From NCBI GenBank assembly GCA_017505525.1, contig JAFVPB010000044.1, positions 12,662-76,661 on the forward strand: 64,000 bases of DNA, in the 5' to 3' direction. Below the pieces are notes generated by a model that saw nothing but the letters and a program-made list of their open reading frames with translations, was not told the DNA's origin and ran no database searches. How positions within the stretch are numbered: the stretch's first letter is position 1; the number at the start of each line of letters is the position of its first letter. Source of the stretch: Clostridia bacterium (lineage in GTDB: Bacteria > Bacillota > Clostridia > UMGS1883). Positions 10,389 through 43,224 of the stretch are shown piece by piece. The translations under genes and the position numbers were made by a program.

Positions 10389-11797
10389 TATTTATGTCTC
10401 CTTATAAGCCAGATAACCAATCCGCCGATGAGTATTACTAATGGAATTATATATTGAAGTAAAATTGCATATCCGATAACCTGTTGCTGAGTCATAACCA
10501 TTCTTTCAGGACTTATCTGTTTTGCCCTGATGCCTGTGTCGGTTGTTGCTCCTCCAAGATAATTTATAACATTAAGAACAAAGTCTCCGTTAAGATATGC
10601 TCCCTCTGTCAACACTCCTGATGTTTCTAACGCAGCAAGAGAACCTATAAATACTATAGCTGAATCTTCAGGCTGATATTTTTCTGATATAGCGGCAATT
10701 GTCAACGGACCTTCTATATCAGTGCTTTCTTTTTCAAGAGTAACTGACTTTAAATTTTTCTTTCCGTAAGAAGCTTCGCTTGTAAACAAAAGCTTTTTCG
10801 CTTCGGAATTATTTTTTGTTGTAACTAAAGATACGCTTGTAGAATCAGGCATAGCTAAAAGAGAGCTTGAATCCTTTATTTTTTCAGTAATTGCATGCTC
10901 TGCAAGTTCAGGAATTGGTATAGGAACGTTATTACCTGCTCCCATTGCTCTTTCACTATCAGATTCAATAACATAATCATAGTTCAGCTCAAATCCCCAC
11001 TCGCTGAGAAAACTGCTGATTCTATCTAAATTGTCTGCTTCCGGGACAGGTACAAAAATGTACTTTCCGCCGTTATCCAAGTAGGTATCAAGAGCTTTAA
11101 TTTCATCTTCTGTAAAATCAACATCGGGAGCTAAAGTGATAAGCATAGATGCATCTTCAGGTATTGTATTATTTGAAAGATTTATGTTGTCGCACTTATT
11201 TCCTTCATCGCGAAGAAAATTTTTAAAGTTTGTACCATCGTATTCGTTATGCCCTTGTGTAAAATAAATATTTGATTGTGAAACTTTTCCTGTAACAATC
11301 ATTATTGCATCTGTAACCTTTTTCTCCATATCGATCTGCACTGTACCAGAATAGCTGTTTTGCTGATAAAGTTGTTCAAAAGGTATAACCTTATAATTAT
11401 CCCCGCATTCAATAATAATTGACCCTATTGCAGCCTGATTATCACCATCGTTGTATTTTTGCATAAAAGCAGGATTTTCATATGGATTAATATATTCCAC
11501 GAAAAATTCATCACTTAAAGCAATATATTTATCTAAATATTCTTTGATATAGTCAATATATTCACTCTGAGTGTTTTCATCAATTAAAGCATATGCCTTA
11601 ACCTCTTTTTCAAGATTTTTCATAATCTCGTTTGTTTGTTCTGAAAATTTATAAACTTTATCCCTCGTTAAATCTATGCTAAGGGAAGATTTGTCTGCAA
11701 TTATAGATACAAACAAATTTAAAACAAGAACACAAACAATAACAACACAAATTGTTATAATGGATGTTAATCCGAATTTTAATTTTCTCTTATTCAT
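10388..11797 (-). CDS. GldG-like ABC-transporter auxiliary component (ABC_transp_aux family)
   Basis: 469 aa with an N-terminal and a C-terminal TM anchor and a large extracytoplasmic domain. It follows an ABC-2 permease, as is typical of the family. Confidence 0.75.
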   Translation of the reverse strand: MNKRKLKFGLTSIITICVVIVCVLVLNLFVSIIADKSSLSIDLTRDKVYKFSEQTNEIMKNLEKEVKAYALIDENTQSEYIDYIKEYLDKYIALSDEFFVEYINPYENPAFMQKYNDGDNQAAIGSIIIECGDNYKVIPFEQLYQQNSYSGTVQIDMEKKVTDAIMIVTGKVSQSNIYFTQGHNEYDGTNFKNFLRDEGNKCDNINLSNNTIPEDASMLITLAPDVDFTEDEIKALDTYLDNGGKYIFVPVPEADNLDRISSFLSEWGFELNYDYVIESDSERAMGAGNNVPIPIPELAEHAITEKIKDSSSLLAMPDSTSVSLVTTKNNSEAKKLLFTSEASYGKKNLKSVTLEKESTDIEGPLTIAAISEKYQPEDSAIVFIGSLAALETSGVLTEGAYLNGDFVLNVINYLGGATTDTGIRAKQISPERMVMTQQQVIGYAILLQYIIPLVILIGGLVIWLIRRHK

Positions 11798-11808
11798 ATT
11801 ATCTCTCC

Positions 11809-12513
11809 TTAGCTGAATCTACGCTTATCTATTACTGAAACAGTAAGAAATAAAAACACAAATATAAAACTTAAATAATAAATAATGTTTTCTATGTTTA
11901 AAACACCATTCTGGAAATCGCCGTAACGAGCAAGCAAAGCAAACCAACCGATAACTTTTTGTGCCACGGGATTTTGAACACTTGATTGGAACCAGTTTAT
12001 AAAATAAATAAGTAATAAACTTGCAAAGGTAAGCACGCCTGCAATCATTTGACTTTCAGTAAGAGCTGAAATAAATATGCCAACTGAAATGAAAGCTCCC
12101 CATAAAAGTATAAACCCGATATACGAACTGATTACCTCGCTTAATGCAGGGTTGCCATATATAAACATTATTGCAGGGAATATAAAACTGACAAGGATTG
12201 TAATTCCAAATACAGCCATAGCTGCAAGATACTTTCCAAGAACTATTTCTGTTATGCTTACAGGAGCTGACATTAGAAGCTGGTCGGTTTTCTTCCCGCG
12301 CTCTTCAGCTAAAAGTCGCATTGTTAGAAGAGATACCAGGAACAGATAAATAACATTTATATTTGAAAACATAATAGAAATATCTGCTTGCTGAGAGAAT
12401 AAAATTCCACTTGCAAAAAACATCGAAGCCAGAGCCATGAAAACTCCTACAAATATGTATCCTATCGGTGAGAGAAAATAGCTTTTAAATTCTTTTTTAA
12501 ATATTGCTATCAT
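11809..12513 (-). CDS. ABC-2 family permease (GldF-like)
   Basis: 234 aa, 6 TM segments. Overlaps the ATPase gene by 17 nt. Confidence 0.8.
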   Translation of the reverse strand: MIAIFKKEFKSYFLSPIGYIFVGVFMALASMFFASGILFSQQADISIMFSNINVIYLFLVSLLTMRLLAEERGKKTDQLLMSAPVSITEIVLGKYLAAMAVFGITILVSFIFPAIMFIYGNPALSEVISSYIGFILLWGAFISVGIFISALTESQMIAGVLTFASLLLIYFINWFQSSVQNPVAQKVIGWFALLARYGDFQNGVLNIENIIYYLSFIFVFLFLTVSVIDKRRFS

Positions 12514-13498
12514 TTTCTGTTACCTCCTGTTCTTCTTTTTCTTCTTCATAAATCTTGCTATTGGTAAGTTTTATAAATATTTCTTCAAGCGTGAGAAGTG
12601 CACTTTTAAATTCAGTAATCGCAATACCATTTTTACCAAAGGCTTCTGTTAGTTGCATCGATATATCGCTTTCCGGCTTTCTTTCCAAGAGTATTTCTGC
12701 TTCGCTGTCGTTAATAAAAGTGGTATTAATATTTACGATTTCATCAATTGAAGACAATATATCAAGCGCTTTTTGGGTATCTCCTTTAAGTTTGAGAATA
12801 TATTTGTCTTTTCCACCCGTTGCTTCTTCAAGACCCTTTAACGTGTTTTGTGCAACAATTTTTCCGTGAGATATAATAGTAACCCTGTCGCACACGGCAC
12901 TTACTTCCTGAAGAATATGAGTGCTGAGAATGATGGTTCTTTCTTTTCCTATTTCCTTTATTACGTTTCTTATTTCAATTATTTGCTTTGGATCAAGCCC
13001 AACAGTGGGTTCGTCAAGAATGAGAACCTCTGGATCACCTATAAGAGCTTGAGCAAGCCCAACTCTTTGTTTATATCCCTTTGAAAGGTTTTTAATCATA
13101 CGATTCTTCATGTCGCTTATTTTTACAAGCTCCATAATTTTTTCTATATGTTCTTTTTTATTGTTTTTAACTTTTTTTAAGTCATAAACAAAGCTTAAAT
13201 ATTCCCAGACCTTCATATCGAAATACAACGGAGGATTTTCCGGAAGATATCCTATTTTGCTTTTTACTATTTTTGGATTTTCCAAAACATCACAGCCACA
13301 AACATTAACAGTACCTCCGCTTGCACTTATGCATCCGCAGATTATATTCATAGTAGTGCTTTTCCCTGCGCCGTTGGGTCCTAAAAAGCCCATAATTTCT
13401 CCGTGTTTGACATTAAAAGAAATATTATCTACTGCTTTATTTGCACCATAATTTTTAGATAGATTAATAATTTCTAATGCATTGTTTACAGTTTCCAT
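12497..13498 (-). CDS. ABC transporter ATP-binding protein (GldA-like)
   Basis: Walker A GPNGAGKST, signature LSKGYKQRV, Walker B ILILDEP. Confidence 0.9.
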   Translation of the reverse strand: METVNNALEIINLSKNYGANKAVDNISFNVKHGEIMGFLGPNGAGKSTTMNIICGCISASGGTVNVCGCDVLENPKIVKSKIGYLPENPPLYFDMKVWEYLSFVYDLKKVKNNKKEHIEKIMELVKISDMKNRMIKNLSKGYKQRVGLAQALIGDPEVLILDEPTVGLDPKQIIEIRNVIKEIGKERTIILSTHILQEVSAVCDRVTIISHGKIVAQNTLKGLEEATGGKDKYILKLKGDTQKALDILSSIDEIVNINTTFINDSEAEILLERKPESDISMQLTEAFGKNGIAITEFKSALLTLEEIFIKLTNSKIYEEEKEEQEVTENDSNI

Positions 13499-13533
13499 AC
13501 TTAACCTCCTGAGTGCAATAATATATTATTTTA

Positions 13534-13561
13534 ATTATACTACAAATGTATCTTGTTGTCA
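13534..13561 (-). promoter_or_regulatory. sigma-A-type promoter for the long minus-strand operon (TGACAA-N16-TATAAT)
   Basis: Minus strand reads aaTGACAAcaagatacatttgtagTATAATtaaaa, about 40 nt upstream of the ABC ATPase start, which carries RBS GGAGG. Confidence 0.5.
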
Positions 13562-13592
13562 TTAGCTATTTGTAAATTTTTTTAAAATAAAA

Positions 13593-13609
13593 ACGAGGGA
13601 TTCCCTCGT
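13593..13609. terminator. bidirectional intrinsic terminator (acgagggattccctcgt + flanking A/T runs)
   Basis: Perfect 7-bp stem directly after the SBP gene stop, flanked by aaaa on one side and tttttatttt on the other. Confidence 0.8.
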
Positions 13610-13611
13610 TT

Positions 13612-14514
13612 TTATTTTAAACCTTCTTTAAGACTTTGATAATTGTTTTCCATTAATTCTAAATACGTTATTCCTTTTTTCAACTGTTCATCCGTAACAC
13701 TGTGGCACGAATGCAGCATGAGCTTTTTAGCTCCAGTTTCTCCCGATATAGTATCAGCAAGTTTTTGATTTGACGTTTCAGTATAAAATACGACATTTAT
13801 ATTTTCATTTTTAATTGTTTCTATAAGCTGTGATATCGTGGCTGCACTCGGTTCACTTTCTGAAGAACACCCAGGAAAAGCGGAAAAGTATTCCAAATTA
13901 TATTCCTCAGCTAAATATTTAAAAGGAAATCTGTCAGCAAAAACTATTTTCTTATTATTATTTTTTGTTAATCTTTCAAATTTTTCATCAAGTTTATCTA
14001 ATTTATTAGAATAGATTTCTTCGTTTTTTTCATAAAAATCTTTGTTTTTGGGATCCATTTGTGCGAGCAAGTTTGCAATTGCTTCAATAATATCTTCTGC
14101 ATTTTCAGGAGATGTCCATATATGTTCGTCCACAGAATATATATCATGATGGTTTTCTTTTATTGTATCAACAACATTTATTGCAGACATAATGCGTGTA
14201 TTGCTTTTATTTTCATCTTTAGATATAGCTTCAACCCACGGATCGGCACTTCCGCCAATATTTATAAATAAATCGCTTTCGTTTATTTTTATAATATCCT
14301 GAACTGTAGGCTCATAAGAATGAGCTTCTCTGCCGGTAGGTAAAAGCATATCTACTTCTGCCCTGTCTCCTGCAATTTGTTTGGCAAAATCATAAAGCGG
14401 AAAAATAGTTGTAACAATTTTCAGTTTATTATTTTGAGTTGTTTCATCGTTTCCAGCACAGCCTGGAATAACTAAAATAATAATTGAAAGTATAAAAGAT
14501 AAAATTTTGCGCAT
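13612..14514 (-). CDS. metal (Zn/Mn-type) ABC transporter substrate-binding lipoprotein (ZnuA/AdcA/TroA family)
   Basis: Lipobox LVIPGCAG and family-typical His/Asp ligand positions. No cognate permease or ATPase is adjacent, so it is an orphan SBP. Confidence 0.8.
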   Translation of the reverse strand: MRKILSFILSIIILVIPGCAGNDETTQNNKLKIVTTIFPLYDFAKQIAGDRAEVDMLLPTGREAHSYEPTVQDIIKINESDLFINIGGSADPWVEAISKDENKSNTRIMSAINVVDTIKENHHDIYSVDEHIWTSPENAEDIIEAIANLLAQMDPKNKDFYEKNEEIYSNKLDKLDEKFERLTKNNNKKIVFADRFPFKYLAEEYNLEYFSAFPGCSSESEPSAATISQLIETIKNENINVVFYTETSNQKLADTISGETGAKKLMLHSCHSVTDEQLKKGITYLELMENNYQSLKEGLK

Positions 14515-14537
14515 ATTTTCACCTCACAAATTTAATT

Positions 14538-14552
14538 TGATAATCATTCTCA
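14538..14552. promoter_or_regulatory. Fur-family (candidate Zur) operator, 7-1-7 inverted repeat TGATAATcATTcTCA
   Basis: One mismatch to the Fur 7-1-7 consensus TGATAAT-N-ATTATCA. It lies 24 nt upstream of the SBP start and in the divergent region shared with the COG0523 gene. Confidence 0.5.
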
Positions 14553-14599
14553 TATTTATATTACATTTACTTGATCTGATTGTCAAGTTGTTTTTATTA

Positions 14600-14628
14600 T
14601 TGACTAAAAGCTATAAAAGTATTATAAT
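14600..14628 (+). promoter_or_regulatory. sigma-A promoter TTGACT-N17-TATAAT for the COG0523 gene
   Basis: Near-consensus hexamers with 17-nt spacing, 25 nt upstream of the start codon. Confidence 0.6.
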
Positions 14629-14652
14629 CTCATAAGTAAGGAAGTGTTATAT

Positions 14653-15702
14653 ATGACGAAAATCGATATTTTTTCAGGGTTTCTTGGAGCAGGAAAAACA
14701 ACTTTGATAAAAAAGCTTATTAAAGAAGCCTATAATGGAGAAAAAATTGTTCTTATTGAGAACGAGTTTGGAGAAATCGGTATAGACGGTGGGTTTATGG
14801 AAGATGCCGGAATAGAAGTTACTGAAATGAATTCAGGATGTATATGCTGCAGTCTTGTGGGGGATTTTGGCAAAGCCCTTACCAAAGTTCTTGAAGAATA
14901 TAATCCTGACCGTATTTTAATAGAGCCTTCCGGTGTTGGTAAGCTCAGTGATGTTATTCGCGCTGTGAAAGATGCCGAGTGTAAAGGTGCCTCGCTTAAC
15001 AGCTACTGTGCAGTTGCAGACGCAAAAAAATGTAAGATGTATATGAAAAATTTTGGTGAATTTTTTAATGACCAGATTGAAAGCGCTTCTTGCATTGTTT
15101 TAAGCCATACAGATGATCTTAATGAAGAAAAAATCGAAGAATGTATTAAATTACTTCGCACAAAGAATGATAAAGCACAAATCGTTGCTTCTCCCTGGGA
15201 TTCGCTATGTGGAAAAGCAATCCTCGAGGCTATAGAAAACACCCACACACTTGAAGACGAAATTAATTCGCTTAAAGAAGAACATCTTGAACATCATCAT
15301 CATGAGCACTGTAAATGTCATGAACATGAACATCACCATAATCATGAGTGCCATTGTCATGAGCATCACCACGACCATGATTGTGGTTGCCATGACCACA
15401 ATCATGAACATGAGCATCATCACCATGCAGACGAGGTATTTACAAGTTGGGGTGTTGAAACAGCAAAATCTTTTACAGAAGCTGAATTAAAGAACATTCT
15501 TTCCGCGTTTGAAGACAGTGAAAAATTTGGTACAGTTTTGCGTGCAAAAGGAATTATTAAAGGAGAAACTGACTGGTTGTATTTTGATTATATTCCATCA
15601 GAAATTGATATCCGCCATGGAAGCAGCGCACCAATAGGTAGAATTTGCGTTATCGGCGCTCAATTAAATAAAAATATTTTAAACGAGACTTTTGGAGTTT
15701 AA
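14653..15702 (+). CDS. COG0523-family GTPase zinc metallochaperone (CobW/YciC/ZigA-like) with His/Cys-rich insert
   Basis: Walker A GFLGAGKTT, ENEFG, metal-binding GCICC, and a His-rich stretch EHHHHEHCKCHEHEHHHNHECHCHEHHHDHDCGCHDHNHEHEHHHH (15286-15440). Start taken at MTKIDIF. Confidence 0.85.
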   Translation: MTKIDIFSGFLGAGKTTLIKKLIKEAYNGEKIVLIENEFGEIGIDGGFMEDAGIEVTEMNSGCICCSLVGDFGKALTKVLEEYNPDRILIEPSGVGKLSDVIRAVKDAECKGASLNSYCAVADAKKCKMYMKNFGEFFNDQIESASCIVLSHTDDLNEEKIEECIKLLRTKNDKAQIVASPWDSLCGKAILEAIENTHTLEDEINSLKEEHLEHHHHEHCKCHEHEHHHNHECHCHEHHHDHDCGCHDHNHEHEHHHHADEVFTSWGVETAKSFTEAELKNILSAFEDSEKFGTVLRAKGIIKGETDWLYFDYIPSEIDIRHGSSAPIGRICVIGAQLNKNILNETFGV

Positions 15703-18988: not shown

Positions 18989-19833
18989 ATGGTTGCGGAG
19001 AATATTATATTGTAAGACCGGGTGATACTTTGAATGATATTGCTCAGTTGTTTAATACAACTGTAGAAAACATCTTGTTGCTTAATGATGATATAGATGA
19101 GAATAATCTTCAGGTTGGAAGACGAATCTGTGTTGTTTCTCAAACTGTTCAACCCGTTACTTGTCCTTTTGGTACTCTACCCTACAATATAAACAGCGGA
19201 GATACTCTTTTAAGCATAGCAAACAGATTTAACACAACAGTATCATCGTTAATTGAAACAAACCCAGGCTTAAATCCTTATAATTTAACAGTTGGTCAAA
19301 GAATATGTATTTCAGAGCCTATAGAGGAATACCCCGAATGTGAGTCAGGTAATTTTTATATTATACGCTCCGGAGATAATTTATCTGTTATTTCCGATAC
19401 ATTTAATGTAAAAATTTCAGAAATTCTGGAAATAAATCCGGGGTTGAATCCAAATAATCTTCAAATAGGGCAAATTATTTGTATACCACTCGCCCCTTCT
19501 CCGATTGAAATTGTGATTAATATTTCTGCAAAAAGATTAACGGTATATAGAAATGGTTCTATATACCGCGAATATATTGTGGCAACTGGGAAGCCTACAA
19601 CGCCAACACCAACAGGATCTTTTACTGTTATAAACAAGCAAATAGACCCAGGCGGACCTTACGGCACCAGATGGTTGGGGTTATCTAAAAGAGGATATGG
19701 AATCCATGGGACAAATAATCCTTCATCAATAGGTACGGCTGCGTCGAACGGATGTATAAGAATGTATAACGAAGATATTGAATCTTTATTTAATATAACT
19801 TCTGTTGGAACTCCTGTTCTTATATTACCGTAA
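18985..19833 (+). CDS. LysM-repeat L,D-transpeptidase (YkuD family)
   Basis: Three LysM repeats followed by the YkuD catalytic region ...GIHGTNNPSSIGTAASNGCIRM. The start overlaps the upstream stop, consistent with an operon with the preceding LysM gene. Confidence 0.85.
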   Translation: MNGCGEYYIVRPGDTLNDIAQLFNTTVENILLLNDDIDENNLQVGRRICVVSQTVQPVTCPFGTLPYNINSGDTLLSIANRFNTTVSSLIETNPGLNPYNLTVGQRICISEPIEEYPECESGNFYIIRSGDNLSVISDTFNVKISEILEINPGLNPNNLQIGQIICIPLAPSPIEIVINISAKRLTVYRNGSIYREYIVATGKPTTPTPTGSFTVINKQIDPGGPYGTRWLGLSKRGYGIHGTNNPSSIGTAASNGCIRMYNEDIESLFNITSVGTPVLILP

Positions 19834-20791
19834 TTGAATAGTCGTTAATCTCAGCTTTTATTATCTGTATTTCAATTCCTTTTTCCTTAAAGTAATTTAT
19901 ATTACATTTTCTGTTTCCAACAATTTTCGATATTAACTTTGGATTAGCCCTTATTTCTATACACTTAGTAGTATTTTTAATGTTTTTTTCTATTTTATTT
20001 CTTATTATTCTTGAAAAAACAAGTTCTCCCAAAGCAGGATGATATGCTCCTGCAATATAATTTTCTTTAAGTGTTTCACTTTCAGGAAGACCGATTCTTA
20101 AAACAGAAATTGAATTTTCATCAAAAAACTCCTTAAGTCCAGCTCCAGTTTCTACTGCTTCTTCAACTGATTGTGGAATGTATTCTCCACTATAGTACAT
20201 TTTTTCGAGTAACGTTCCTTTAAGTACAACCGTAGGATAAATCCTTGTTTCTTTTGCGCCTAGTTCAAGAAATTTTTTTGCTGTTTTCATACATTTATCG
20301 TATGAATCTTTTGGAAGTCCTGTCATCATTTGAAGTCCTAAAACAGCCCCGTTTTTAAGAATAATTTCTGAGGCTTTTTCCACGCAATTAGAATTATGTC
20401 CTCTTTTTGAATACAAAAGCACTTCTTCGTCCATTGATTGCGCTCCAAGCTCAATATTTTTTACTCCATAACTGATAAGACGTTTTACAGTATCTTCATC
20501 GATGTAATCAGGCCTTGTGGATATACGAATGCTCTCGACAGCTCCCTTTTTAATAAAAGAATTAGCAAGTGAAAGATATTCGTTTTGTTCAAAAGTATTA
20601 ATGCCTGTAAAGCTTCCGCCAAAAAAAGCGATCTGGTTTTTAGTGGTTTTAGCTGTTTTTAAATATTCGTTTATAACTTTTTCTGCCTCAGTAACAGTAG
20701 GAGCTTTTTCTTTTCCGCTGATAGTTCGCTGATTACAAAAGGCACAGTCGTTTGGGCAACCCTTATGTGGTACAAAAATGGGTATAATCAT
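19820..20791 (-). CDS. radical SAM protein (ELP3/HemN-like subfamily, function unknown)
   Basis: N-terminal IPIFVPHKGCPNDCAFCNQ contains the CxxxCxxC 4Fe-4S motif. Confidence 0.7.
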   Translation of the reverse strand: MIIPIFVPHKGCPNDCAFCNQRTISGKEKAPTVTEAEKVINEYLKTAKTTKNQIAFFGGSFTGINTFEQNEYLSLANSFIKKGAVESIRISTRPDYIDEDTVKRLISYGVKNIELGAQSMDEEVLLYSKRGHNSNCVEKASEIILKNGAVLGLQMMTGLPKDSYDKCMKTAKKFLELGAKETRIYPTVVLKGTLLEKMYYSGEYIPQSVEEAVETGAGLKEFFDENSISVLRIGLPESETLKENYIAGAYHPALGELVFSRIIRNKIEKNIKNTTKCIEIRANPKLISKIVGNRKCNINYFKEKGIEIQIIKAEINDYSITVI

Positions 20792-20866: not shown

Positions 20867-22138
20867 TTATTCAGTTATTGAATCCTCGTCAAATTCTTCA
20901 TCATGTTCATATTCATATTCATATTCATCTTCATCATATTCATCTTCATCTTCATCAAGATCTTCTAAATCATAGTCGTCATAATCCTCTTCATACTCAT
21001 ACTCATCTTTCATTGCTCTGCCAATAAGCATTACGATTATACCAACTAAGATTACAATACCTCCGTAAATTAATGCACTGGTATGGAAGCTTTTTATCAG
21101 AGCAGTGTATACAGATCTGATAAATAAATTTGATGTTGAAAATCCGGGGTTAAAGAAGAAGCCTGCAACTCCTACAATTATACCGGCTACTATAGAGCAC
21201 CACCCTATTAATGTATGAGCATAACCCTGACAAGATGAAATTATTATAATTAATAAAATCATTAAAATTACTGCAAGAGCTGCTAATGTAATAATTGAGA
21301 AAATAATTGACAACTCATCAGTATACTGTGCAGCCTTATTCTCTTTTAATGCTTCGGGAGAAATATCTTTTAAAGCAGAAGATTTATTTACATATGCTTT
21401 AAAATCATTACATGCACTTTGTCCCAGTTCTTTTCCTGTTACAAGCTTTATATGCGAAGCATTATCACTTATTACATTTGCGATATCATCGCCCGATATG
21501 CCATCATAATGAGTTCCATAGAGATAAAATGAAATAATACCATGAGCATTTTTTGCAATAAAATCAGAATATGAAGATTCGTCAATTTTACTTACTATAT
21601 ATGAATAAGTTACAGAATTTATTGCATTATCGCGAAGTATATCAGTAAGCGTTGCCTTCGATGCACTTTTATTGAGATTTAAATCTTTAACATTTTTAAT
21701 TTTTCCAATAACAAATGTTTCAGGATTGTGCGTGCGAATAGCGCTTGAAATTGAATATTCAGATGTATTCATTCTTACAAGAAGCGATGAAAGGGTTGCA
21801 GAAAGAACTGTTGTAAGAAGCAATACAAGCAAAACAGTACGAGTGATAATTAAAGCTTTTTTTAGTGCTCTACGTCTTTTTTTACTCTTTTTAGACATAC
21901 GTTTTAAATTTTTTTCTTTTACTTTTTCATGTTTCGCCTGTTCCTTTTCCACATTATACTTAGGGATTTTAATGGGTTCGGGTATGAAATCTTCAATTAT
22001 ATCACTATCAACGTTTATTTTAGATTCTATTGAAGCTTCTTCTCCTGCTACATCTTGAGTAAGCTCATTTTCTGTATTATCAATATTACTATTGTTTTTT
22101 GTGTTTTCATTTGGCACAAATTCATTTTCCTGATTCAT
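20867..22138 (-). CDS. membrane protein with basic N-terminal cytoplasmic region, extracytoplasmic domain, 3 C-terminal TM helices and poly-acidic D/E/Y tail
   Basis: Start taken at MNQENEF (RBS GGAAGTG). The tail YEYEEDYDDYDLEDLDEDEDEYDEDEYEYEYEHDEEFDED is encoded by imperfect hexamer repeats at 20880-21000. The gene is divergent from lexA and shares its LexA box region. Confidence 0.5.
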   Translation of the reverse strand: MNQENEFVPNENTKNNSNIDNTENELTQDVAGEEASIESKINVDSDIIEDFIPEPIKIPKYNVEKEQAKHEKVKEKNLKRMSKKSKKRRRALKKALIITRTVLLVLLLTTVLSATLSSLLVRMNTSEYSISSAIRTHNPETFVIGKIKNVKDLNLNKSASKATLTDILRDNAINSVTYSYIVSKIDESSYSDFIAKNAHGIISFYLYGTHYDGISGDDIANVISDNASHIKLVTGKELGQSACNDFKAYVNKSSALKDISPEALKENKAAQYTDELSIIFSIITLAALAVILMILLIIIISSCQGYAHTLIGWCSIVAGIIVGVAGFFFNPGFSTSNLFIRSVYTALIKSFHTSALIYGGIVILVGIIVMLIGRAMKDEYEYEEDYDDYDLEDLDEDEDEYDEDEYEYEYEHDEEFDEDSITE

Positions 22139-22262
22139 ATATACACTTCCTTTGTAATTAAATAGGCTCTTATATAATATCAATTTCTACGAAATAAGTC
22201 AAGCAAAAGATAACTTTGTCGATTTAATTAACAAACAATTTACAAATAAAAATTATATTTTA

Positions 22263-22276
22263 CGAACAAATGTTTG
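22263..22276. promoter_or_regulatory. LexA (Cheo) box CGAACAAATGTTTG overlapping the lexA -35
   Basis: Matches CGAACRNRYGTTYC at 12/14 positions. It is followed by TTGACT-N17-TTATAAT. It is shared with the divergent membrane-protein gene about 125 nt away. Confidence 0.75.
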
Positions 22277-22332: not shown

Positions 22333-22956
22333 ATGGCTGCAAATATAGATAAACAACAACAAATTTTAAATTTTATACAAAGGCAGATAAACGAAATGGG
22401 GTTTCCGCCTACAGTTCGCGAAATATGCGAAGCAGTCGGGCTTAACTCCCCTGCTACTGTTCACGGATATTTAAACAGACTCGAAAAAAACGGATTAATA
22501 GAAAAAACCCATGGAAGTTCCCGAGGAATAAGACTTACTTCCACATCTAACATTCCAACTAATATAACTTCTATAGAAAAGGAATATTTAGAAGTTCCTG
22601 TTATAGGCAGAATAAGTGCGGGCTTACCTATTCTTGCAGAAGAAAATCTTGAAAGAACTTTTCCTCTTCCTATGGATTTTGCAAAAAAGAATGAAATATA
22701 TATGCTTCACGTTCACGGAGAAAGTATGATAAATGCAGGGATATTTGATGGAGATTATGTTATCGTTGAAAAATGTTCCGTTGCTAACAACGGTGAAATT
22801 GTTGTGGCTCTTGTAGAAGACAGTGCAACTGTAAAAACATTTTACAAAGAAAACGGACATTTCCGTCTGCAACCAGAAAATGATTTTATGGAGCCTATCA
22901 TAGTTGATTCCGTTGTAATTTTAGGCAAAGTTGTGGGTGTATATCGATTGTTTTAA
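22333..22956 (+). CDS. lexA: LexA repressor
   Basis: 207 aa. N-terminal wHTH (REICEAVGLNSPATVHGYL), an Ala-Gly cleavage site in VIGRISAGLP and the S24 peptidase Ser/Lys (GESM...K) catalytic motifs. Confidence 0.95.
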   Translation: MAANIDKQQQILNFIQRQINEMGFPPTVREICEAVGLNSPATVHGYLNRLEKNGLIEKTHGSSRGIRLTSTSNIPTNITSIEKEYLEVPVIGRISAGLPILAEENLERTFPLPMDFAKKNEIYMLHVHGESMINAGIFDGDYVIVEKCSVANNGEIVVALVEDSATVKTFYKENGHFRLQPENDFMEPIIVDSVVILGKVVGVYRLF

Positions 22957-39794: not shown

Positions 39795-40820
39795 TTACTC
39801 AAAAACTATTACTGCCTTTATAAGACTCCTGTCGGTATTTTTTATTTGTTCAACTGCTTTTGGCAGTTCTTCTAAACTGTATTCATGCGTAACCATATCA
39901 CGCACATTAATCTGTCCACTTGATATAAGATTAACAAGTGGCTCCCATGCAAGATAATTTCCGCATACACCGTGAAGATTTAAATGCCTGAGAACAATTT
40001 CTGTTACGGGGAAATTAATTTTTTTATCTTCTCCCGGTATTCCGTAGAAGAATATATCTCCGCCATTTGCGCAAGCGCGAACTGCCATCTCTACAGAAGA
40101 TACTGAACCCGCCGCATCAATTGAATATCGTGCTCCAATACCGTTTGTTTCTTCCATAACTCTTTTATACACATCTTCATTCTGTGCATCAATAACAATA
40201 TCTGCTCCGAATTTCTTTGCATATTCTATTCTTTCACTTCCGCGCGCCGAAACAATTACTTTGGCAGCGCCACAACTTTTTGCAAGCTGAAGATATGCAA
40301 TTCCCGCAGGACCTGCTCCCTGTATGAATACAGTAGAGCCCATTTCGATTCCAAACCTGAGAATTGAACCTGAAGGACAAACTACGCTTTCGATAATTGC
40401 CCCCTCTTTATAAGAAATATTATCAGGTATTCTTACTAAGGCGTATTCCGGCACGACAACATATTCAGCATATCCTCCATTATGGGGATTAAAGCCAATT
40501 TCACTTCCGTTGGGGCACATTTCGTTTCTGCCCGATTTACACCACTCACATTTTCCACAGGAAATAACAGTATTTATAATAACTCTTTCCCCGATTTTAG
40601 CACTTGTTCTTTCGCCGCATTCTGCAATAACTCCACATATTTCATGGCCTAAAATGTGAGGAGGTGTTGCATGTTTAAATGCGCCTATAATAATATGCAC
40701 GTCTGTTGCACACACTCCTGCAGCTTTTACCTGCACTAAAACCTCTCCCTCTTTGGGAACGGGTTTTGGAACATCCTTTATTTCTATTTTATTATAATCA
40801 GTCCATACTGCTGCCTTCAA
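39795..40820 (-). CDS. zinc-dependent medium-chain dehydrogenase (sugar/polyol or threonine dehydrogenase-like)
   Basis: GHEICGV catalytic zinc site, a structural Zn Cys cluster CGKCEWCKSGRNEMC, and GAGPAG as the NAD site. Confidence 0.85.
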   Translation of the reverse strand: MKAAVWTDYNKIEIKDVPKPVPKEGEVLVQVKAAGVCATDVHIIIGAFKHATPPHILGHEICGVIAECGERTSAKIGERVIINTVISCGKCEWCKSGRNEMCPNGSEIGFNPHNGGYAEYVVVPEYALVRIPDNISYKEGAIIESVVCPSGSILRFGIEMGSTVFIQGAGPAGIAYLQLAKSCGAAKVIVSARGSERIEYAKKFGADIVIDAQNEDVYKRVMEETNGIGARYSIDAAGSVSSVEMAVRACANGGDIFFYGIPGEDKKINFPVTEIVLRHLNLHGVCGNYLAWEPLVNLISSGQINVRDMVTHEYSLEELPKAVEQIKNTDRSLIKAVIVFE

Positions 40821-40832
40821 AAAACCACCTCA

Positions 40833-41492
40833 TTAAATAACAAAATATTCAAGTTCAAGAGGATACAAAAATAAATTTTGAGCCCCGTTTTCAGCAACTA
40901 TATAATTATCTTCAACTCTGATACCGAATTTATCTTTAAAATAAATTCCCGGCTCAAGAGTTACAAAATCATTTAAAGATATTATTTCGTTTCTTTCAGG
41001 AAGAAACTGAGGTTGCATAACTCTTTCTATACCAAACAAATGACCTGCATGGTGCGGGAAATTTTCCTCAAAAGGTGCAAAAGCATTTCTTACAACAGAA
41101 TAAACGTCGTTTGCACACACGCCATCTTTTAATACATTCTCTCCTGTATTTTTTGCACAAAGACAAAGCTCATATGCCTTTGAAACCTCAGGAGCAGGCG
41201 TTCCAACAAAAAATGTTCGAGTAGTGTCGGTCCACACTCCTTGATATTTAAACTGCAAATCTAAAATAAGAGTGTCTCCGTCTTTTAAAACATAGTCTGT
41301 TGCATCGCCCTCAATTTCAGCAGTTCTCACTCCGCCCACTATATCTCCTGAAAAGTCTTCTGCACCAGCACAAGCCGAAAGTATAATATCTTTTATGTTT
41401 TTTTCACTCATACCGCGCTTGAAATTGTTTTTAACACTTTCATATGCCAAAGCATTAAATTCCAAAGCTTTTATTATTTTTTTCTTCATCAC
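40833..41492 (-). CDS. short M24-family (creatinase/prolidase-fold) protein, catalytic domain only
   Basis: 219 aa with the pita-bread metal ligands D, D, H, E and E (HHAGHLFG...E...E). Confidence 0.65.
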   Translation of the reverse strand: MMKKKIIKALEFNALAYESVKNNFKRGMSEKNIKDIILSACAGAEDFSGDIVGGVRTAEIEGDATDYVLKDGDTLILDLQFKYQGVWTDTTRTFFVGTPAPEVSKAYELCLCAKNTGENVLKDGVCANDVYSVVRNAFAPFEENFPHHAGHLFGIERVMQPQFLPERNEIISLNDFVTLEPGIYFKDKFGIRVEDNYIVAENGAQNLFLYPLELEYFVI

Positions 41493-42613
41493 GCATCAAC
41501 TCTATAGAAGTTAAGAACTTCTTCATCAAGTTCAATTCCAAGACCGGGCTTGTTAGGAATATTTACAACACCATTTTCATCGATTGTGAAGTGCTTTTTA
41601 ACAAGAGTTTTACTAAGCACTGTTTCCTGATTTACGTATTCAAGCCAAAGAGCATTTGGAGTATTGGCAATAATATGAAGAGATGCACTCATAAGAATAC
41701 CAGTTTTAAATGCATGAGGAATTAAAGTAATTCCCTTCTTATATGCCATATCAATAATTTTCTTAGCAATTGTAATACCACCACAACGGCTGATATCAGG
41801 CTGAATTATATCAATATTACAGTTGTTTATAAGTTCATCAAATTCAAATAAGGTTCCGATTTCTTCTCCGGCAGAAATTCTCATATCAGTGCTTTCGCAA
41901 AGTCTTTTATAATGATCAAGATAGTCGGGCTTGAATGGTTCTTCTACCCAGTAAACGCCATAATCCTTAAAAGCATTACAAAGATTTACTGCACCCTTTA
42001 AATCCTTCCATACCATACCGATATCAATCATTAATTCAGGCTTGTCGCCCATTGCTTTTCTTGCAGTCTTAACAAGGTGCAGATCTTTTTCAGGCGACTG
42101 ACCAAGAGCACCCCAACCAAATTTAATACCCTTGTATCCCTGAGGAAGATATGTATCTGCTATTCTTTTAATCTCATCTTCTGATTCAGGCATCAAAACG
42201 CTGCAGTATGCCTGAATGCTATCGCGGAAAGAACCACCAAGAAGCTTATGAACAGGAAGACCTGTAGCCTTGCCCATAATATCCCATATAGCCATATCAA
42301 TACCGCTCATAGCATGGATAACAACGCTTCTTCTACCGTGGTAGTAAGCAAGGTCATACATCTTATGCCAGATCTTTTCAACATCAAATGGGTCTTCTCC
42401 GATTACTGCATGTTTAAGACCCATGCATACCATATGTGATGCTGGAGCCTCTATAACGCTTTTCACAACATAAGGAGATGAATCAACTTCACCCACACCA
42501 ACAATACCTTCGTCGGTATAAACTTTTATAACTACAGTATCCTGACTTCCGTCGCCAATCAATTCTATTTCTTTCTGCTTTACAATTATTGCCTCAACAT
42601 TTGTAATTTTCAT
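41489..42613 (-). CDS. enolase-superfamily acid-sugar dehydratase (mandelate racemase/D-galactonate dehydratase-like)
   Basis: The N-terminal YTDEGIVGVGE capping domain and barrel ligands D(IDIGM), E(EEP) and E(AGEE). Confidence 0.85.
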   Translation of the reverse strand: MKITNVEAIIVKQKEIELIGDGSQDTVVIKVYTDEGIVGVGEVDSSPYVVKSVIEAPASHMVCMGLKHAVIGEDPFDVEKIWHKMYDLAYYHGRRSVVIHAMSGIDMAIWDIMGKATGLPVHKLLGGSFRDSIQAYCSVLMPESEDEIKRIADTYLPQGYKGIKFGWGALGQSPEKDLHLVKTARKAMGDKPELMIDIGMVWKDLKGAVNLCNAFKDYGVYWVEEPFKPDYLDHYKRLCESTDMRISAGEEIGTLFEFDELINNCNIDIIQPDISRCGGITIAKKIIDMAYKKGITLIPHAFKTGILMSASLHIIANTPNALWLEYVNQETVLSKTLVKKHFTIDENGVVNIPNKPGLGIELDEEVLNFYRVDA

Positions 42614-42731
42614 AATATTTCCTCCAAATTAAAATTTATAAAACACCATTAAAATTGTAACACAACAATATAGTTCAGTCAAGAAAATAAAACAATTATA
42701 CCAAATGTTAAAACATATATACCAAAAAAAT

Positions 42732-42760
42732 ATCGTGAGAGATGATTAATCCCTCACGAT
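42732..42760 (-). terminator. intrinsic terminator downstream of the yneA-like gene
   Basis: atcgtgagagatgattaatccctcacgat hairpin, followed by a U-run (ttttttt) on the minus strand. Confidence 0.75.
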
Positions 42761-42765
42761 ATGAA

Positions 42766-43083
42766 TTAAATATCAGGCACATAAACGGTTTGGCCTACAT
42801 AGATATGAGAATTATCTATACCATTATTTTTTGATATTTCATAAACGTATTCAGCGATATCAATACCCTCAGGTTTATGTTCTTTTGCGATGCTCCAGAG
42901 AGTGTCTCCTGCTTTAACGGTGATAGCCTTAACCCCTTTCTTATCAGCTGAATTTGCACTAAGAGAAAACACAACTGTAGAAATTATAAACATTAAAACA
43001 AACATTAATAAAAGTGCTTTGCTACGCTGTGCTTTAAGCTTTTGCTGTCTTCTTAATTTTCTTAATTTACTGCTTGTATTCAT
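42766..43083 (-). CDS. YneA-like SOS cell-division inhibitor (N-terminal TM anchor + C-terminal LysM)
   Basis: 105 aa from MNTSSKL with RBS GGAGG. LysM is ITVKAGDTLWSIAKEH...YVGQTVYVP. Two LexA boxes lie upstream. The longer track ORF (to 43101) is judged to read through the RBS. Confidence 0.7.
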   Translation of the reverse strand: MNTSSKLRKLRRQQKLKAQRSKALLLMFVLMFIISTVVFSLSANSADKKGVKAITVKAGDTLWSIAKEHKPEGIDIAEYVYEISKNNGIDNSHIYVGQTVYVPDI

Positions 43084-43097
43084 AATACAACCTCCAA

Positions 43098-43142
43098 ACA
43101 TCTGTTCGCTTTATGTTTATATAATAACAGAACATTTGTTCG
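43098..43142. promoter_or_regulatory. tandem LexA (Cheo) boxes: AGAACATTTGTTCG (43129-43142) and weaker AAACATCTGTTCG (43098-43110)
   Basis: The distal box is GAAC-N4-GTTC with flanks matching CGAACRNRYGTTYC. The proximal box overlaps the RBS and start of the LysM gene. Confidence 0.7.
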
Positions 43143-43178
43143 GTGTCAATACTTTATTTTAAAATTTTTAAAAAAATT

Positions 43179-43209
43179 GAGATGCTTAAAAACTACATTT
43201 AAGCATCTC
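43179..43209 (-). terminator. intrinsic terminator after SASP gene
   Basis: gagatgcttaaa-N7-tttaagcatctc is a 12-bp stem followed by a U-run on the minus strand. Confidence 0.8.
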
Positions 43210-43224
43210 AATATCCACTTTAAA

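Follow-up and report, generated by a model that had tools for sequence, protein, structure and literature searches.

A small gene in the 64 kb stretch of DNA from an uncultured Clostridia bacterium analysed here (the whole of which we call the window) probably encodes an SOS checkpoint protein of the YneA family that is repressed by LexA from two operators. Both the assignment to YneA and the control by LexA are well supported by the sequence, and division inhibition is, by homology, the most probable function of the product. Public records label the gene only as "LysM peptidoglycan-binding domain-containing protein"; our analysis allows it to be labelled with confidence as an SOS-controlled, YneA-type division inhibitor.

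Architecture and family of the protein

The coding sequence (42766–43083, minus strand), defined from the list of open reading frames and the sequence itself, encodes 105 residues from an ATG at 43083. A ribosome-binding site, GGAGG (43095–43091, minus strand), read from the sequence and unchanged in four taxa, precedes it with a spacing of 7 nt to the ATG. We also considered a 111-residue version starting from the ATG at 43101 and rejected it: it has no ribosome-binding site, its ATG lies inside the second of the LexA boxes described below, and an in-frame TAA follows the equivalent ATG in one of the relatives (L084).

The protein has a basic, predicted cytoplasmic N-terminus (residues 1–22), a transmembrane helix (roughly 23–41), a linker and a LysM domain (54–103), the last matched by Pfam with an E-value of 1.1e-11. 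The most hydrophobic window of 19 residues begins at residue 23 (mean Kyte–Doolittle value 2.75), and because the strongly basic N-terminal 22 residues (KLRKLRRQQKLKAQRSK) precede it, the positive-inside rule implies a single-pass, N-in/C-out topology. An AlphaFold2 model built on 59 homologues (mean pLDDT 84.9) has helix at residues 3–44, a strand at 51–55, helices at 62–69 and 76–87, and a strand at 99–103. When this model was compared to solved structures with Foldseek (PDB), the top matches were all LysM domains, superimposing with an rmsd of 1.5–2.4 Å over about 55 columns.

More specific evidence for the family comes from the NCBIfam equivalog NF010723, "cell division suppressor protein YneA", which the protein matches with 68.5 bits against a cutoff of 60, the runner-up family model scoring 32 bits. 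The match places residues 25–103 on positions 8–85 of the 87 in the model, and so spans both the transmembrane and the LysM parts. Homologues score 50–73 bits overall, those linked to lexA giving 50–64 and the unlinked gene of Anaerovorax odorimutans (L010) giving 72.6. Together with the Pfam match, the hydropathy and the AlphaFold2 model, this score bears out the earlier note, which had described a 105-residue protein with a transmembrane helix, a LysM domain and the architecture of YneA. For comparison with YneA of B. subtilis, which we take to be 105 residues long like the protein in the window, the NCBIfam model and the lexA-linked homologues from Paenibacillus (L006 and L030) served as stand-ins for its sequence. 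Alignment of the protein to two lexA-linked homologues, one from a Paenibacillus (L006) and one from a Clostridiales MAG (L005), extends over about 100 residues with 34–38% identity.

An exhaustive HMMER search found 3617 proteins at E≤0.001; among the 150 top-ranking cluster representatives, about half are 85–140 residues long and have the same layout. Across 59 family members the GDTLW motif is nearly invariant; within it lie D60 (Asp in 56 of 59) and T61 (Thr in 54 of 59), the counterparts of the peptidoglycan-binding D46 and T47 of B. subtilis YneA, where D46, T47 and I81 are needed for peptidoglycan binding (PMC13396833). Positions 12 and 20 are basic in 92–93% of the same 59 proteins. 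The transmembrane helix is hydrophobic, with basic juxtamembrane residues and a family-conserved F39 at its outer end (the commonest residue there, in 32 of 55 members), but a residue-level match to the B. subtilis helix is unreliable, and the FtsW-contacting residues K5, E6, F10, V11 and F14 cannot be mapped onto it.

The overall likeness to B. subtilis YneA is thus a protein of about 100 residues that combines a single N-terminal transmembrane helix with a single extracellular LysM domain bearing GDTLW, passes NF010723 and is encoded behind a promoter with LexA operators. Two differences lie in the protein itself. It has the 22-residue basic N-terminal segment, whereas the critical K5 and E6 of B. 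subtilis YneA stand almost at the N-terminus, and it lacks the C-terminal tail that follows the LysM domain in B. subtilis and is implicated in turnover. The protein stops two residues past the Pfam LysM match, and the family consensus likewise stops near the conserved P103.

The N-terminal segment (residues 1–22, 43018–43083; TSSKLRKLRRQQKLKAQR) is nearly unchanged in relatives down to 47% overall identity, a degree of conservation that exceeds the needs of a positive-inside signal. AlphaFold2 models it as an extension of the transmembrane helix. It falls outside the NCBIfam YneA model, the match to which starts at residue 25.

The promoter and its LexA boxes

A consensus scan finds a sigma-70-type promoter directly upstream of the gene (43121–43149, minus strand), consisting of TTGACA (43149–43144), a 17-nt spacer and TATTAT (43126–43121). 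It agrees with the consensus at 11 of 12 positions and has a TG ahead of the −10 hexamer. The first LexA box, CGAACAAATGTTCT on the coding strand (AGAACATTTGTTCG in the orientation of the window), occupies 43129–43142 (minus strand), takes up 14 bases of the 17-nt spacer, and is invariant in four taxa. The second box, CGAACAGATGTTTG on the coding strand (CAAACATCTGTTCG in the orientation of the window), lies at 43095–43108 (minus strand). It follows the −10 hexamer at a distance of 13–26 bp and shares its final base with the Shine–Dalgarno sequence GGAGG, as the first G of the latter. The two boxes, both found by sequence scan, are 34 bp apart, centre to centre, in one promoter.

A near-consensus Cheo box at 43129–43142 had been claimed in the earlier note, and box 1 was found at exactly these coordinates, with a single mismatch. 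The note had also claimed a weaker box overlapping the ribosome-binding site. The overlap is real, though box 2 likewise has only one mismatch and has its half-sites (CGAAC...GTTTG) in common with the operator of lexA itself; it is therefore not the weaker site.

When no more than one mismatch is allowed, CGAACN4GTTCG occurs just three times in the 64 kb, against 0.52 expected, a count reached in 2 of 100 shuffles; the three are box 1, box 2 and the operator of lexA. With two mismatches allowed there are 12 sites in the window against 11.1 expected, and thus no excess. Given such operators in a strong promoter, the gene is very probably repressed by LexA. We also looked at a perfect GAACN4GTTC, GAACTCCTGTTC, at 19808–19819, which has neither the C/G flanks nor a promoter and lies at the 3′ end of a radical-SAM gene (19820–20791, minus strand); we judged it to be a chance match.

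The gene is found in three other taxa, where the protein is 82%, 75% and 47% identical to that of the window. In all three the −35 hexamer, box 1 and the ribosome-binding site are invariant and box 2 and the −10 hexamer nearly so, and the surrounding intergenic DNA diverges. Two of these relatives (L087 and L084) have CGAACAAATGTTTG at the position of box 2, identical to the operator of lexA, and L084 has an additional third box farther upstream. For the closest relative (L088) the YneA-type protein is 82% identical to that of the window, compared to 95.8% for FtsY, 98.5% for the neighbouring small acid-soluble protein (SASP) and 99.3% for the enolase-family protein. By this comparison the control region is more tightly constrained than the coding sequence, since the promoter and operators are kept while the protein diverges faster than its neighbours.

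A hairpin scan finds intrinsic terminators on both sides. That of the upstream SASP gene (43176–43212, minus strand) has a 15-pair stem and a T run, and that directly after the YneA-type gene (42730–42762, minus strand) has a 14-pair stem and a T run. With these terminators, its own promoter and a separate promoter-like site for the enolase-family gene downstream, the gene is, on the predicted signals, an insulated monocistronic unit. This differs from B. subtilis, where yneA heads the yneA-yneB-ynzC operon.

The upstream SASP gene is of the alpha/beta type (Pfam SASP, E 6e-30). Downstream, a cluster on the minus strand (39795–42613) encodes an enolase-superfamily protein (MR_MLE), an M24-family protein, a Zn-dependent dehydrogenase (Zn-ADH), a DHDPS-family aldolase, a glyoxalase and an aldose epimerase, and resembles an operon for sugar-acid catabolism; a promoter-like site of its own lies at 42682–42654. 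The same description covers 10471–15669 of locus L001. The smc-ftsY-SASP neighbours are kept in the close relatives L087 and L088, and L088 is the only relative in which synteny extends to the enolase cluster; in L087 the next called gene, within about 400 bp of sequence, is a 55-residue open reading frame in place of the enolase gene. In L084 the SASP neighbour is absent, with a methylase gene upstream and a YpsA-family gene downstream, and the more distant unlinked genes have no context in common with the window. The reading of the locus as an insertion into a metabolic context, put forward earlier, is right about the SASP and sugar-acid flanks, but the flanks carry no functional weight given terminators on both sides and separate promoters. 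Functional coupling of the gene to the sugar-acid genes or to the SASP gene was accordingly rejected, the neighbours in L084 also being unrelated.

In L084 (5802–6759) the YneA-type gene, with its three LexA boxes, is followed directly by the YpsA-family (PF06908) gene, which may be a coincidence. Overexpression of YpsA perturbs division in B. subtilis.

Position relative to lexA

The predicted repressor is encoded by lexA at 22333–22956 (plus strand), identified by its translation and by TIGR00498 (219 bits against a cutoff of 111). The protein keeps the Ala-Gly cleavage site (ISAGLP) and the catalytic pair of serine (GESM) and lysine (VKTF). Its operator, CGAACAAATGTTTG (22263–22276, plus strand), lies 57 bp upstream of lexA, overlaps the −35 hexamer of the lexA promoter, is invariant in two related loci (L089 and L091), and provides an internal reference for the local LexA motif. 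As claimed in the earlier note, which had put lexA (22333) 20 kb away beside a different gene, it lies 19.8 kb from the YneA-type gene and is divergent from a gene for a 424-residue membrane protein.

In this the gene differs from yneA of B. subtilis, which is divergent from lexA, and lexA adjacency is reported for every Gram-positive inhibitor characterised (those of B. subtilis, B. megaterium, Listeria, M. tuberculosis, C. glutamicum and S. aureus; PMC6851548). A scan of a single genome for each GTDB species yielded 80 related loci, all of them relatives of this query protein. Of these, 57 have the YneA architecture. An upstream, divergently oriented lexA accompanies the gene in 38 of them, at a median gap of 261 bp; in 16 the flanks are free of lexA for at least 2 kb each way, and in most of these for about 6 kb; in the remaining three the flanks are too short for a decision. 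The gene is thus unlinked from lexA in 16 of 54 informative species-level relatives, or about 30%, a figure that is indicative only because the sampling favours relatives of the query.

Of the 16 unlinked loci, 15 still have LexA-like boxes, with a density of 9.4 per kb over the 220 bp that precede the gene, compared to 0.57 per kb in the remainder. Across all homologues the corresponding densities are 9–14 per kb and 0.3–0.6 per kb elsewhere in the loci, and the enrichment is seen upstream of 51 of 54. A rough neighbour-joining tree divides the unlinked genes among at least six groups, of which two are nested among lexA-linked genes of Lachnospiraceae; this points to repeated separation of yneA and lexA. 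Both arrangements are common in this family and, as LexA acts in trans, no particular reason is required for the gene to stand apart from lexA. The separation noted earlier as a relocation is thus confirmed, but it has no special status, 16 of the 54 relatives being arranged likewise.

The unlinked genes of Anaerovorax odorimutans (L010), a Peptostreptococcaceae MAG (L012), a Family XIII MAG (L004) and a Gaiellales MAG (L053) similarly encode small proteins with a transmembrane helix and a LysM domain that match the YneA model, and have no lexA within about 6 kb. They differ in having other neighbours, no common synteny, and only 29–41% identity to the protein in the window. Within the class Clostridia, the closest described case is Clo1313_1450 of C. 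thermocellum, a YneA-like LexA target with the YneA domain structure and a conserved LexA site, which, unlike the gene in the window, adjoins lexA (PMC8457756). ChiZ of M. tuberculosis and SosA of S. aureus are comparable, by description, as SOS-induced, small, single-pass membrane division inhibitors, ChiZ also having a LysM domain; both, however, adjoin lexA, and SosA lacks the LysM domain (PMC6851548). The literature that could be searched yielded neither a description of an unlinked yneA nor a study of this protein specific to Clostridia.

The gene divergent from lexA (20867–22141, minus strand) encodes a polytopic membrane protein of 424 residues, basic in a juxtamembrane stretch and very acidic in its C-terminal tail, for which neither Pfam nor NCBIfam has a matching family. 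Its homologues keep both the position divergent from lexA and the downstream radical-SAM gene down to 41% identity (L089–L092). We considered whether LexA controls this gene as well: it has a conserved promoter, TTGACT-17-TATTAT (22202–22174), about 60 bp from the LexA box and with no operator over it, and LexA probably does not repress it.

Predicted function and its alternatives

Taking these data together with what is known of YneA, a plausible course of events can be outlined. In an undamaged cell, a LexA dimer bound to box 1, within the promoter spacer, would exclude RNA polymerase, and a second dimer on box 2, against the Shine–Dalgarno sequence, would block any polymerase that escaped; both roles are suggested by the anatomy of the promoter. 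By the established SOS pathway, DNA damage would lead to RecA filaments and self-cleavage of LexA, and the TTGACA-17-TATTAT promoter would then fire. The 105-residue product would insert N-in/C-out and, by homology to B. subtilis YneA, its transmembrane helix would dock on TM7 of FtsW, the septal peptidoglycan polymerase (PMC13396833). The LysM domain, facing outward, would likewise bind peptidoglycan and stall septal wall synthesis, so that division pauses until repair is done. LexA would then repress the gene again and the protein would be removed by CtpA/DdcP-type extracellular proteases, as is known for YneA in B. subtilis (bioRxiv 10.1101/391730). In B. subtilis the transmembrane helix of YneA binds TM7 of FtsW and the LysM domain binds peptidoglycan, both domains being required (PMC13396833), and in C. 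difficile a lexA mutant is filamentous (PMC4689574).

Several points count against the YneA-type reading, namely that the FtsW-contact residues are unmapped, that there is no C-terminal tail, that the protein has a basic N-terminus of 22 residues, and that the gene is not adjacent to lexA. The first three also bear on an alternative that keeps the regulation by LexA but not the division inhibition, in which the product is an SOS-induced peptidoglycan-binding membrane protein with some other envelope role, for example protection or remodelling of the wall during damage-induced elongation. YneA of B. subtilis loses its activity when its transmembrane or LysM part is swapped for that of SpoIIIM, which is also a TM-LysM protein (PMC13396833), so the architecture alone is no guarantee of division inhibition, a further point against the YneA-type reading; specific transmembrane and LysM sequences are needed, and the critical transmembrane residues cannot be mapped here. 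The rapid divergence of the coding sequence and the extra, conserved basic N-terminal helix fit this alternative too. We nevertheless consider it unlikely, as the protein passes a curated YneA equivalog and aligns over its whole length with homologues divergent from lexA. No function other than division inhibition is known for the YneA family. Moreover, small LexA-controlled TM-LysM proteins (YneA and ChiZ) are division inhibitors in every case characterised (PMC6851548).

A bolder proposal is that the SOS division checkpoint has been rewired in this lineage of Clostridia, with a conserved polytopic membrane protein of roughly 370–440 residues in the slot beside lexA and the YneA-type gene placed elsewhere and carrying a basic cytoplasmic helix. 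That helix (TSSKLRKLRRxQKLKxQR) is conserved and absent from the Bacillus YneA model. We regard such rewiring as distinctly improbable. If it were true, the lexA-adjacent membrane protein would be a second, undescribed SOS-linked envelope factor or, alternatively, the N-terminal helix would add cytoplasmic control or targeting absent in B. subtilis.

The neighbouring SASP gene raises the further possibility of a sporulation TM-LysM protein of the SpoIIIM/SafA type, with the LexA-like boxes incidental. The YneA-type gene does lie directly downstream of the alpha/beta-type SASP gene, a pairing kept in close relatives, and SpoIIIM has the same topology. However, a strong terminator separates the two genes, the promoter is near-consensus and of the sigma-70 (vegetative) type, and the match to the SafA/ExsA model, at 18.9 bits, falls far below the cutoff of 67.85. 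The boxes, conserved across taxa (box 1 invariant, box 2 nearly so), also match the operator of lexA, and L084 keeps them without a SASP neighbour, making a sporulation role very hard to sustain. Least credible of all is an ordinary constitutive LysM protein with LexA-like sites arising by chance in AT-rich intergenic DNA, which the absence of an excess at two mismatches might suggest, but which is at odds with an excess at one mismatch confined to the lexA and YneA-type promoters, the 34 bp spacing of two sites in one promoter, their retention in four taxa (nearly so for box 2) amid diverging flanks, and the same enrichment upstream of most homologues.

On the YneA-family reading, the gene reveals no new mechanism. 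What it does affect is how such genes are sought. Adjacency to lexA, a common shortcut to the SOS division inhibitors of Gram-positive bacteria, misses about 30% of the relatives sampled here, and a search that combines LexA operators with the TM-LysM architecture is more reliable.
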